Positions 19,449-21,781 of a stretch of 64,000 nt of DNA are shown here, piece by piece. Within the stretch, counting starts at the first letter, position 1. Each line of letters starts with the position of its first letter. This DNA is from Escherichia coli (GTDB taxonomy: Bacteria > Pseudomonadota > Gammaproteobacteria > Enterobacterales > Enterobacteriaceae): NCBI RefSeq assembly GCF_030013595.1, contig NZ_CP122768.1. One strand, given 5' to 3'. Under the pieces are notes generated by a model. That model ran no database searches. It was not told the origin of the DNA and worked only from the letters and a program-made list of their open reading frames with translations. A program made the translations under genes and the position numbers.

Positions 19449-19637
19449 TTATTTCCTTAGCACATGAAACAATGTTTGCTTTAATTCCACCCATACAATT
19501 ATGACCACTATAGACAGACAAAAGAAACTGAATGCATTGGCATCACGATCGAAACCTTCTCCGGCACTAAATCCGTAAAAGGTCATAAAAAATATAAAAA
19601 TTGCGCACTTTGCAACGTTTACAAATTTTTTCTTCAC
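19449..19637 (-). CDS. Hypothetical small membrane protein (moron, antisense to late operon)
   Basis: 62 aa, two predicted hydrophobic helices, low GC; lies where P22 carries sieA. Confidence 0.4.
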   Translation of the reverse strand: MKKKFVNVAKCAIFIFFMTFYGFSAGEGFDRDANAFSFFCLSIVVIIVWVELKQTLFHVLRK

Positions 19638-20011
19638 ACCAACCTCCTTAGTTTTGCTCAGGATACCAGATGATACTTTATTGGTGGAGTGGTGTGTGAA
19701 AACGTGTCAACGACAAACCATCCACAACTTGGACGAATGATTTAGCAAAAAGTGCTATTTTTGGTGTTTAGTGTCATAGAAAAGTGAATAGCTCACTTTT
19801 CAACATTGCATGAAACTTGCAGGAAATGTGACATTACCTTATAGGTAATTTCGGCGAAAATGCAGTAAATGTGAAACGTAATGGTTTAAACATGTCGCTA
19901 AAGTGGTTGTAAGTTAGCCTCCGAAGGATTGCTGATAGCTTTGTTATAGTATTAAATGACATTTGACATAGTTGGATACTTAGCTGTGGCTATCAAGATG
20001 GAGGTGTGTTC

Positions 20012-20455
20012 ATGCTTACTTGTTTTGATGTCGCCGACTACTTCCTGTCGCGGTGTGACGAGGATAGCGGTGACACAATCTCTAATTTAAAATTACAAAA
20101 GCTTGTTTACTATGCTCAGGGGTTTTCATTGGCGTTGCTTGGTGAGCCTCTTTTTCAGAATAAGATGGAAGCTTGGATGCATGGCCCTGTTGTCCCTGAG
20201 CTTTATCGCCGTTATAAACAATATGGTAATGGAGCTATCCCTTCTCCAGAGTCTTTTGATGCTGAAAAATTCAGCGAAGAACAGTTAGAGCTATTAGAAG
20301 AAGTCTGGGATGTTTTTGGGCAATTTTCTGCCTGGAAACTGAGGAACATGACACACGAAGAGTCACCATGGAGATCAAACTATATTGAGGGTGTTGGTGG
20401 TTCTGAAATTAGCTCTAAGGAGATGGCAGAGTACTTTGCAACTCGGATTAACTAA
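20012..20455 (+). CDS. DUF4065 / Panacea-domain protein (putative antitoxin, PanA/SocA-like)
   Basis: Motif LKLQKLVYYAQGFSLALLGEPLF...EAWMHGPVVPELYRRYKQYG typical of DUF4065 phage-associated proteins; GGAGG 7 nt upstream of ATG 20012 (the ORF track uses GTG 20006). Confidence 0.65.
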   Translation: MLTCFDVADYFLSRCDEDSGDTISNLKLQKLVYYAQGFSLALLGEPLFQNKMEAWMHGPVVPELYRRYKQYGNGAIPSPESFDAEKFSEEQLELLEEVWDVFGQFSAWKLRNMTHEESPWRSNYIEGVGGSEISSKEMAEYFATRIN

Positions 20456-20459
20456 CGAG

Positions 20460-20879
20460 ATGGCAAGAAAATCTAAAAGGATTATCCCCCCTGCTGAATC
20501 TACAGGTAAGTTAAAGTTAGGGCCGCAGTCAGGGGGGAATTCAGATCAAAAGAAACCGAAATTTTCATTCTGTTACATCCAAAGCTCTCACTGCATAACG
20601 AAATGCCAAAAAGATGAGAAAGCTGGCTTAGCTGATAAATTATACAGATTAAGTCAACTAACATGGGCAGAGATTAAGCAGCAAGGTAGGCATAAGCTTG
20701 GATTTGAGAAGATTGCAAGGGGTGCAATTAAAGCTGGTATCCCCGGTCATATAACGGAAGACGTAGATCATTTCTTGGCTTTTAGATTTGATGATTTGAA
20801 AGCCATGGTTGGTTATCGTCTTGGATCGACATTTTTTGTTATATGGCTTGATAGAGAGTTCAACCTATACAAGCACTAA
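20460..20879 (+). CDS. Uncharacterised partner protein of the Panacea-like gene (candidate toxin/effector)
   Basis: ATG 4 nt after upstream stop; 139 aa, basic N-terminus, Cys cluster (CYIQSSHCITKC), C-terminal GYRLGSTFFVIWLDREFNLYKH weakly like RelE/ParE-type toxin C-termini; followed by strong terminator. Confidence 0.5.
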   Translation: MARKSKRIIPPAESTGKLKLGPQSGGNSDQKKPKFSFCYIQSSHCITKCQKDEKAGLADKLYRLSQLTWAEIKQQGRHKLGFEKIARGAIKAGIPGHITEDVDHFLAFRFDDLKAMVGYRLGSTFFVIWLDREFNLYKH

Positions 20880-20908
20880 TAAAACCCACCGTCAGGTGGG
20901 TTTTTTTG
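20879..20908. terminator. Strong, probably bidirectional intrinsic terminator
   Basis: Hairpin acccacc-gtca-ggtgggt flanked by an A-run upstream and a T-run downstream; sits between convergent genes. Confidence 0.8.
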
Positions 20909-20923
20909 TTGGAGATAAAATGG

Positions 20924-21127
20924 TTAACCAAATCGATCCTTAAAGCGTCTATCGCTGTTGCGTCTCTCCATTTTACTGTTGCAGTACGGACAAAGATGCT
21001 GTTTCTTTCCATCGATAGTCCATGTGAAGTACTTTTTCTTAAATCCAGCACCACAGATATCGCAACTTCTTGGTTTAAACATACTGGCTATGAAGATAAG
21101 AACAACAAATCCTATGATCCATTCCAT
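20924..21127 (-). CDS. Hypothetical small membrane-anchored zinc-ribbon protein
   Basis: 67 aa; N-terminal hydrophobic helix then CDICG...CPYC (CxxC...CxxC); low GC. Confidence 0.45.
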   Translation of the reverse strand: MEWIIGFVVLIFIASMFKPRSCDICGAGFKKKYFTWTIDGKKQHLCPYCNSKMERRNSDRRFKDRFG

Positions 21128-21268
21128 ATCATGTACCTGTTTTAACTTTATTTTTTGATTTTTAGGGATTAATCAGAAACTTTATCTTGCGATTAAGCAA
21201 AGCTACTAGCTAACAAAAGAGTGCGTATACAATCAATCGTTTCACATCAACCTCAACAAGGAGAAATC

Positions 21269-21454
21269 ATGACCATAGAAGAACGCCTGAACAACATTGA
21301 GTTGAACCAAACCCTGCTTGACCAGCGACTTTCAGATCTTGAGCTTAAAGATCTGGATGCGCAAATATCAGAAGCAGAAGCCAAGCTCTCCAGCTTAAAC
21401 CACCGCAAGAAGCAAATCCGCAACAGAATTACTCAGGGACGCGGAAGCCGTTGA
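21269..21454 (+). CDS. Hypothetical small coiled-coil protein
   Basis: ATG at 21269 preceded by AAGGAG at good spacing; 61 aa predicted helical. Confidence 0.45.
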   Translation: MTIEERLNNIELNQTLLDQRLSDLELKDLDAQISEAEAKLSSLNHRKKQIRNRITQGRGSR

Positions 21455-21463
21455 AATCCTAGT

Positions 21464-21781
21464 CTATTTTTTCTCAGAGCTCATATTGTAATAGGTGGTA
21501 TAAATAGAGATTGATTTCTGACATGCTTCAAGAAATTGCTGCGGAGTCATCCCGAGCCTTGCTTGCTCTGTAGTAAGGAATCTCTGTAAGAATTCATTCC
21601 CACCTGGCATGTTTGTAGATTCTTGGAATATTGCCATTTGTTTGATTGCACCACACATACCAGCCATTTTAGAAGCTATCATGAGGCCTTGTATTTCATC
21701 AAAACTGCTATCGTCTGATTTTGTTTCTGCGTTAGCTATGCTCGAGAGACACAGGAGCAATAGGATAGCGATACGTTTCAT
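21464..21781 (-). CDS. Hypothetical small secreted/periplasmic protein, co-oriented downstream of mnt-like gene
   Basis: 105 aa with signal peptide (MKRIAILLLLCLSSIANA); start overlaps mnt-like stop (ATGA). Confidence 0.5.
   Translation of the reverse strand: MKRIAILLLLCLSSIANAETKSDDSSFDEIQGLMIASKMAGMCGAIKQMAIFQESTNMPGGNEFLQRFLTTEQARLGMTPQQFLEACQKSISIYTTYYNMSSEKK

Follow-up and report, generated by a model that had tools for sequence, protein, structure and literature searches.

In phage P22 the interval between the ejection-protein gene 16 and mnt holds two genes: according to the P22 record, sieA lies antisense and has its own promoter, and orf59a lies 3′ of mnt, before the mnt terminator. 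The sieA gene is found in only 22 of 66 P22-like phages (it is absent from 44 of the 66), and always between genes 16 and 9 (PMC10883804). A second class of described systems is represented by the PanAT pairs, and the pair of the P22-like relative Emek is part of the PanAT dataset of Kurata et al. (2022), in which it belongs to toxin cluster T1 and is predicted to be an 'mRNase' (PMC8832971). Here, a stretch of 64,000 nucleotides (nt) of Escherichia coli DNA (contig NZ_CP122768.1) was analysed, which is called the window. It contains the site where the late operon meets the immI region of a P22-like (Lederbergvirus) prophage, with a gene-16 homologue on the left and mnt on the right. The island between them comprises six open reading frames (ORFs) in five units of alternating orientation, as determined from the ORF listing and the sequence (the Panacea pair consists of two genes). 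Taken as a whole, the best explanation, which is regarded as probable, is that the island is an accessory (moron) region in which at least five independently mobile cassettes were joined by recombination. Morons at the P22 sieA/immI hotspot and the PanAT systems have already been catalogued, and the island genes are further members. Two aspects are modestly new, namely the invariant sieA leader as a port for gene exchange, and two uncharacterized families that recur 3′ of ant-repressor genes across phage morphotypes.

The mosaic structure of the island was revealed by a comparison with 12 related loci, which were fetched and aligned with blastn, and with 5,426 complete E. coli genomes and phages, which were searched with megablast. 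When a 2.8-kb query spanning the island was used, at least 80% of it was matched by no phage record and by only one of the 5,426 genomes. The single cassettes were present in 88 (orf62), 86 (panAT, 47 of them full-length), 31 (orf67), 129 (orf61) and 35 (orf105) of these genomes. For comparison, the mnt allele of the window was present in 146 genomes and the 3′ allele of gene 16 in 417. The cassettes were thus found in only a minority of the genomes that share the same mnt or gene-16 allele, and conserved core or virion roles are therefore ruled out. Sharp breakpoints recurred across the 12 loci at 19437/19438, 19629/19635, 20906, 21258/21259, 21454 and 21791/21801. The first of them falls just past the stop codon of gene 16, the one at 20906 lies beside the terminator between panT and orf67 and was found in four loci, and those at 21258/21259 and 21454 are the limits of the orf61 cassette.

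The ten annotated relatives had ten distinct gene sets in the interval from gene 16 to mnt. P22 carries sieA and orf59a, while Emek carries the secreted orf129, panAT, orf61, orf69 and orf77 with two transmembrane (TM) segments. In phiv205-1, orf62 and panAT are accompanied by a ClpP-like gene, in JEP4 orf62 lies together with a second repressor/Rha/KilA set, and in UPF_BP1 it is found with two further genes. CUS-3 harbours hkcB, two further genes and two mnt copies, and Kapi1 two secreted proteins, orf61 and orf69. In VTB96816v, sieA and panAT are joined by two mnt copies, and UMNF18 combines orf109 (TM/coiled-coil) with a divergent allele of panAT and with orf67, orf61 and orf105. Lastly, rl0044 is organized as the window apart from the sieA slot. 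An earlier reading of the DNA, made from the sequence alone (the sequence-only reading), had placed the island at the sieA-equivalent position of a cargo hotspot. Both parts were verified, the position by comparison with the P22 record, in which it is that of sieA and orf59a, and the hotspot by the ten gene sets and by the minority presence of the cassettes. That reading had also proposed to define the cargo boundaries by alignment across P22-like prophages, and the recurrent breakpoints now supply them. It had named conservation as core genes of P22-like phages as the finding that would speak against cargo, and the variable presence of the cassettes excludes such conservation.

Further genes were observed in this interval or in neighbouring slots of related prophages. 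In CUS-3 the interval contains two genes on the minus strand that overlap each other, ECRS218_0008/0007 (locus L024, 1664-2667), with products of 139 and 199 amino acids (aa). The C-terminus of the 139-aa protein looks RelE-like by eye, and the two genes may be a further toxin-antitoxin pair at the hotspot. The neighbouring slots contained a gene for a Rap1a-like protein (PF18602; L033, 2829-3176), one for a SieA-like protein with a weak PF26849 match (L032, 2832-3446) and one for a YafO toxin (L028, 1051-1488). PF18602 comprises periplasmic immunity proteins of type VI secretion systems. These three finds indicate that the hotspot gathers genes for envelope protection and toxin genes of several kinds.

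The unit next to gene 16 is orf62 (19449-19637, minus strand, 62 aa, GTG start), which occupies the sieA slot. The 86 nt upstream of orf62 and the GTG were shared, base for base, by four unrelated ORFs, i.e., orf62, true sieA, orf129 of Emek and orf109 of UMNF18. This conserved sieA leader, which can be written as ...CTAAGGAGGTTGGTGTG, terminates in AAGGAGGTTGGTGTG, and the four sequences part right after the GTG. The true sieA in the slot is that of E. coli VTB96816v, the product of which is 93% identical to P22 SieA, and the final 34 nt of the leader are also identical in the sieA leader of P22 itself. In the window the leader alignment delimits an expression cassette at 19638-19723 (minus strand). 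It consists of a promoter-like element TTCACA-N19-TATCAT (19700 to 19670), which matches the annotated location of PsieA in P22, a 5′ untranslated region (5′-UTR), the Shine-Dalgarno (SD) sequence AAGGAGG and the GTG, which lies 5 nt past it. The proteins encoded in the slot are diverse. SieA has multiple TM segments, the orf129 product of Emek has a signal peptide, that of orf109 in UMNF18 combines a TM segment with a coiled coil, and the orf62 product has two TM segments. In Kapi1 the slot holds a member of the orf105 family (Kapi1_059; L025, 2439-2747), which carries no annotation beyond that of a signal-peptide protein, and in Citrobacter-type prophages a SieA-like protein or a Rap1a-like periplasmic protein. 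Because an identical leader precedes unrelated ORFs, the slot is viewed as a fixed expression port for exchanged envelope proteins. The leader, with its promoter-like site, 5′-UTR, SD sequence and GTG, would drive any ORF that is plugged into the slot, in this case orf62. It is also a simple handle to find other swapped-in genes in prophages.

The orf62 product has two TM-like segments that form a clean hairpin, and it matched the 62-position family phrog_21338 over its full length (5e-45). The ORF was intact in all copies, including those of phiv205-1, JEP4, UPF_BP1 and K_EC180. It was left unannotated by the NCBI Prokaryotic Genome Annotation Pipeline (PGAP) in nearly all carrier E. coli genomes, and likewise in the phages JEP4, phiv205-1 and UPF_BP1. 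The best support for a real gene is that orf62 uses the translation start of sieA. Two other identities were considered and rejected. Firstly, orf62 is not a short SieA (BLASTP E = 0.27 against P22 SieA and 2.1 against the SieA-like PF26849 protein; 62 aa versus 164-204 aa). Secondly, it is not a membrane partner of PanT, as the two are exchanged independently of each other: JEP4 and UPF_BP1 carry orf62 but not panAT, and the reverse is true of Emek, rl0044 and VTB96816v. Judged from its position, the shared leader and the membrane location, orf62 would be a two-TM protein of the inner membrane that is expressed by the prophage and hinders the DNA entry of incoming phages, SieA-like in its effect.

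An RNA-based function of this unit was also considered. In the P22-like prophage BTP1 the STnc6030 RNA of about 786 nt is antisense to the 3′-end of an injection gene and the tailspike gene's 5′-end; it is highly expressed in lysogens, it confers BTP1 immunity on its own, and it maps to the same junction (PMC7067206). By analogy, the minus-strand units of the island might act mainly as RNA, with a transcript from the sieA leader that extends, as antisense RNA, over the 3′-end of gene 16 and blocks superinfecting relatives by base pairing, and with the orf62 peptide being secondary. No terminator-like site was found in the 18 nt between the orf62 stop and gene 16, and the near invariance of orf62 (two substitutions, none of them synonymous) would fit such an RNA. 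However, the strong SD sequence and the GTG are shared without change by four different ORFs, including that of SieA, a proven protein, which argues for translation of orf62, as do the two-TM hairpin and the PHROG family match. Furthermore, the gene-16 allele beside orf62 differs among the orf62 phages, and the matches begin only at 19437/19438, so that the cassette is not tied to a single antisense target. An RNA function is thus very unlikely, and a membrane protein in the sieA slot is preferred.

At the other end of the island, orf105 (21464-21781, minus strand) is the second gene of the mnt operon, with a start codon, ATG, that shares bases with the stop codon of mnt (ATGA). This 4-nt overlap was kept in four loci (Citrobacter and other P22-like loci, 65-72% identity). 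The protein has a variable signal peptide (...ANA/E) and a conserved mature part with two invariant cysteines. Its family comprises 256 representatives at the 50% level and did not match any Pfam family. An AlphaFold2 model contained a three-helix bundle behind the signal peptide with a predicted local distance difference test (pLDDT) score of 92.8, and a structure comparison with this model gave no informative neighbour. A distant member (P0150) lies directly 3′ of an Arc/Mnt-type gene, divergent from arc-ant, in a siphovirus-like tail cluster. Other members were found in chromosomal, non-phage contexts, and protein names were not recorded for the distant relatives. The possibility that orf105 is a homologue of orf59a was rejected, as the two were unrelated in a comparison with P22 orf59a. 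A kinship with the Rap1a-like immunity protein of the neighbouring slot (L033) was rejected as well, since the alignment covers the signal peptides only.

A similar association with repressor genes was observed for orf67 (20924-21127, minus strand), which encodes an N-terminal TM helix, a zinc ribbon (CxxC...CxxC) and a basic tail. The 18 homologue clusters had identities of 65-97%, and in the 18 sequences C22, C46 and C49 were invariant and C25 nearly so, which form the two CxxC knuckles. The match to the Pfam family Zn_ribbon_8 was weak (E = 0.013), and PGAP left the gene mostly unannotated in carrier E. coli genomes. Its coding status was verified by comparison with four divergent loci, in which its frame was the sole open frame (66-76% aa identity) and the differences by codon position were 16:10:40 and 15:7:44, revealing purifying selection in that frame only. 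In five of seven other contexts the homologues were located directly 3′ of ant-repressor genes. In four of these the preceding gene was Mnt-like (a Providencia myovirus-like contig, Edwardsiella phage Edno5, Klebsiella phage KP12 and a metagenomic phage), and in the fifth, a second metagenomic phage, it was a CI/LexA-type repressor gene divergent from ant. The sixth homologue has an Arc gene and a YafO toxin gene in its vicinity, and the seventh has no repressor nearby. It was also considered whether orf67 is part of the panAT unit, which was rejected on the basis of the breakpoint at 20906 and of orf67 copies without panAT in other phages.

On the mnt strand the stretch from orf105 to the hairpin at 20904-20881 did not reveal any terminator-like site. 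Read-through from Pmnt into orf67, across the antisense strand of orf61, is therefore possible as judged from these signals. Both genes would be passengers of the ant-repressor operon: orf105 would be coupled to mnt translation and delivered to the periplasm, while orf67 would follow on the mnt transcript, which would end at 20904-20881, and would be anchored in the inner membrane. There, they would modify the envelope or exclude phages. The recurrent post-repressor position (behind Mnt-like genes in loci L005, L010, L011, L012, L029 and L031-L034, behind a CI/LexA-like gene in L030) and the translational coupling of orf105 to mnt would also fit a role of both proteins as regulatory accessories of immI that influence the activity or stability of Ant, Arc or Mnt, and the cytoplasmic zinc ribbon and basic tail of orf67 could bind protein or nucleic acid. 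However, orf105 has two invariant cysteines together with a cleavable signal peptide, as is typical of a periplasmic protein, i.e., another compartment than that of Mnt, Arc and Ant, and a regulatory role in immI is unlikely for the secreted orf105. In addition, members of its family also reside in the sieA slot (Kapi1_059) and in the chromosomal contexts mentioned above, orf105 accompanies the mnt allele of the window in only 35 of 146 genomes, orf67 was found in only 31 genomes, and P22 immI functions without either of them. Such a regulatory function of the two proteins thus has little probability, and an action at the envelope is favoured. The synteny of orf67 and orf105 with ant-repressor genes offers a testable rule for spotting cargo that is expressed in lysogens.

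The central unit of the island is the panAT pair. The panA gene (20012-20455, plus strand) encodes an antitoxin-like protein of 147 aa with a Panacea domain (DUF4065), which was recognized by Pfam PF13274 SocA_Panacea (E = 3.2e-24, residues 28-120). The match to the NCBIfam SocA model (7e-20) was under the cut-off of that model, and near-identical proteins in other E. coli genomes are named 'Panacea domain-containing protein' by PGAP. The panT gene (20460-20879, plus strand) starts 4 nt past the panA stop codon and encodes a putative ribonuclease (RNase) of 139 aa. The proteins are identical to their Emek counterparts (YP_006560565/6) at 145 of 147 positions (PanA, YP_006560565.1) and at 137 of 139 positions (PanT). 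For PanT 169 homologues of about 140 aa were found, in which H78, E83, R109, R120, Y137 and H139 were invariant or nearly so. The protein terminates with Tyr-x-His, resembling the catalytic residues at the C-termini of HigB and YoeB. No match to any Pfam family, including RelE/ParE, was obtained, no sequence-profile match to solved structures in the PDB was found, and the match to the NCBIfam model MAG6450_fam (0.032) was under its cut-off. The structure model predicted a RelE-family fold, i.e., a compact alpha/beta protein with helices on a sheet of three to four antiparallel strands. Moreover, the core of PanT matched the C-terminal domain of PADLOC NsnC (E = 9.2e-6). This domain has been described as PB-BECR1, the effector of Menshen, and as a BECR RNase that resembles YafQ and has an H-R-H triad (PMC12065111). 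The conserved residues of PanT are compatible with such a triad at the sequence level. The relation to Menshen links a toxin-antitoxin-like pair with the RNase domain of a defence system.

The pairing of the two genes is conserved across phyla, as in three of three distant loci (Aeromonas, Solidesulfovibrio and a metagenome) a PF13274 gene was located immediately 5′ of the panT homologue. The panAT upstream region (19724-20011) accompanies panAT in Emek, rl0044, VTB96816v and phiv205-1. A repeat analysis revealed direct repeats TGCAG(G/T)AAATGTGA 5′ of panA, at 19818-19831 and 19861-19874, with a distance of 43 nt, which flank a palindrome GACATTACCT-tat-AGGTAATTTC at 19830-19852. The repeats and the palindrome look operator-like. 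PanA itself does not contain a DNA-binding domain, and a sequence scan gave no clear sigma-70 promoter for panA on the plus strand. Downstream of panT, a hairpin at 20881-20904, which is annotated as a terminator in Emek, has a 10-bp stem with an A run before it and, on the plus strand, a T run after it, and it is predicted to be a bidirectional intrinsic terminator between panT and orf67. Thus, panA and panT would form a unit with close-coupled translation, a long upstream region of its own and a terminator. A second allele of panAT was observed in E. coli UMNF18 (L007, 2327-2749), and likewise in L008. Nucleotide identity was about 83-87% over the leader and panA, and megablast left most of panT unaligned. 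The 140-aa PanT is intact in this allele, but PGAP does not annotate it, and thus the locus appears as an orphan Panacea gene in RefSeq.

The remaining gene, orf61 (21269-21454, plus strand), has a GGAG 5 nt 5′ of its start and encodes a 61-aa coiled-coil protein with a basic C-terminus. It matched phrog_7586 over its full length (7e-43), and its substitutions by codon position were 4:1:12. The PGAP name of longer homologues, XhlA, was not supported (PF10779 E = 0.51, no TM segment); the 92-aa 'XhlA' calls consist of the orf61 homologue and a non-conserved N-terminal extension. In the proposed scheme orf61 would be a conserved small coiled coil in the orientation of the late operon, to which no role is assigned.

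Several observations weigh against the proposed interpretation. The PanT of Emek was 'not toxic' in E. coli BW25113, and the same was true for a second E. coli member of T1 (PMC8832971). The Emek ORF that was tested corresponds to the 161-aa annotation, which has 22 extra N-terminal residues before the conserved start. Furthermore, scans of PADLOC, NCBIfam and Pfam did not assign orf62, orf67, orf61 or orf105 to any known defence or exclusion family. For orf62 divergent homologues were missing, so that selection could not be measured, and the promoter scan revealed no convincing sigma-70 promoter for panA, orf61 or orf67. Lastly, in an RNA-seq study of the Kapi1 lysogen mnt was not detected, and it should thus not be assumed that mnt-linked genes are expressed during lysogeny. 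In that study, Kapi1_059-062, among them the homologue of orf61 and the gene of the orf105 family, did not appear among the Kapi1 genes listed as non-expressed (PMC12922286). The sequence-only reading had called each of the island genes a candidate defence or exclusion factor. This claim drew on position only and did not hold up in that general form, given that the small proteins belong to no defence family, that orf62 is not SieA, and that the PanT of Emek is non-toxic. While the reality of the genes, the mosaic structure, the shared leader, the folds and the synteny are established, defence or exclusion roles of the island genes are plausible, and the functions of the small proteins as well as their expression in the lysogen are what we infer. 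Should the small envelope proteins prove to keep phages from entering, several new families of superinfection exclusion would be added to SieA, and two of these genes are so small that the NCBI pipeline mostly leaves them unannotated.

Because of the negative toxicity result for Emek, the pair in the window is treated as a predicted PanAT with a toxin that is probably conditional. PanA would restrain the RNase-like PanT with its RelE/BECR fold, and PanT would probably act conditionally, in triggered abortive infection or addiction, rather than as a constitutive growth poison. PanT is thus a case of a predicted toxin that is non-toxic on its own. PanAT might also be a selfish module or one that stabilizes the prophage by addiction, in either case devoid of a defence role, with the small ORFs being neutral hitch-hikers at an insertion-tolerant hotspot. 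PanAT enters unrelated sites as a self-contained unit, as it lies between P2-type tail genes in Aeromonas and adjoins a P22-type portal gene in Solidesulfovibrio, PADLOC does not list the PanA-PanT pair as a defence system, and the prevalence of the cassettes is low and uneven. However, post-segregational killing is hard to square with a near-identical PanT that was non-toxic upon overexpression. In addition, orf67, orf61 and the orf105 family are under clear purifying selection across genera, and thus they are not neutral, and orf67 and orf105 hold a specific post-repressor position in different phage types. On balance, addiction with neutral passengers is an unlikely explanation, and an accessory region with selected cargo is the preferred one.

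It is tempting to extend the preferred interpretation, although the extended version is speculative and on the doubtful side. The gene-16/immI junction would then be a plug-and-play exclusion locus with two fixed ports, the SD sequence and GTG of the sieA leader and the 3′-end of mnt, at which unrelated envelope proteins are swapped. The orf105 and orf67 families would be new classes of repressor-coupled exclusion proteins that are expressed in lysogens and are used by temperate phages of the podo-, sipho- and myovirus types. By analogy with T4 Spackle, orf105 would act in the periplasm, e.g., by neutralizing murein-degrading ejection proteins. In PanT, the Menshen RNase effector would exist in a free-standing form that fires only upon infection.

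The surroundings of the island are those of a P22-like prophage. On the left side a gene-20/gene-16-type pair of ejection-protein genes is located, of which the gene-16-type DNA transfer protein gene (17325-19430, plus strand, 701 aa) matched phrog_770 'DNA transfer protein' (1e-161) and phrog_29117. The right side contains mnt, arc, ant and the tailspike gene. The mnt gene (21778-22029, minus strand) encodes a repressor of the Arc/MetJ family (PGAP 'Arc family DNA-binding protein') and matched phrog_795 (2e-24), the family in which the P22 phage record places the P22 mnt product. Divergent promoter-like sequences resembling Pmnt and Pant were found at 22058-22104 on both strands. The scan yielded promoter-like sites only for orf62 and mnt, and the terminator at 20881-20904. 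Between arc and ant, an Rfam scan gave a sub-threshold match to a sar-like antisense RNA (22280-22346, minus strand; RF00262, 29.3 bits, E = 0.004, gathering score 43), which agrees with the immI layout of P22. It falls outside the island, and it was the only match of the Rfam scan in the region. The same gene-16 allele (99.9%) was observed in E. coli CFSAN061761 (L026), in an element that has a TOPRIM/DUF927 primase gene 5′ of the ejection-protein genes and, on their downstream side, a PerC-family gene among others. Within 4.5 kb 3′ of gene 16 the annotation shows no mnt, arc or ant, and the element could represent a satellite, or a P22-like remnant that has decayed but retained the ejection-protein genes.

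The coordinates, the alternating orientation and the placement between gene 16 and mnt were as the sequence-only reading had described them, and its descriptions of the proteins as membrane, zinc-ribbon, coiled-coil, secreted and Panacea proteins agreed with the domain, TM and model analyses. It had also regarded all genes as more AT-rich than the structural module. This is true for the island as a whole, which has a GC content of 39.6% compared with 49.5% for both the window and the structural module and is in the 2nd percentile of sliding windows. However, orf61 (47.3%) is no lower than gene 16 (47.4%) and thus an exception. In the island ten ORFs of at least 60 aa were observed compared with 2.3 +/- 1.5 in shuffled sequences. 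Many of them overlap by chance, and therefore the coding status of each small ORF was tested individually.

The closest known systems resemble the island in different aspects. With the PanAT systems of Kurata et al. (2022), the pair shares the PF13274 antitoxin, the order of antitoxin and toxin, the 4-nt gap and the pairing across phyla. In contrast to them, the defining toxicity and neutralization assay was negative for the 99%-identical Emek pair. The pair in the window is therefore a predicted PanAT. PanT differs from RelE/ParE (BECR) proteins and from the NsnC C-terminal domain in an N-terminal extension of about 45 residues, which was mostly of low confidence in the model. Its partner is a Panacea protein and not RelB, HigA or ParD as in RelE/ParE systems, or NsnAB as in Menshen, and its RNase activity is a predicted one. 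No similarity in sequence or fold to T4 Spackle, Imm and other envelope exclusion proteins was detected for orf62, orf67 and orf105, and the resemblance is one of location and compartment: in both cases small secreted or membrane proteins of a resident phage are encoded beside DNA-delivery genes, and SieA, a Rap1a-like periplasmic immunity protein and other proteins with signal peptides are encoded in the neighbouring slots of relatives. In comparison with P22, orf62 (62 aa, two TM segments) is dissimilar to SieA (164 aa, multi-TM) and to the 204-aa SieA-like protein, orf105 is unrelated to orf59a, and panAT, orf67 and orf61 are present in the island and absent from P22. The layout, however, is that of P22 sieA and orf59a, with one antisense gene directly 3′ of gene 16 and one gene 3′ of mnt in the mnt transcript.

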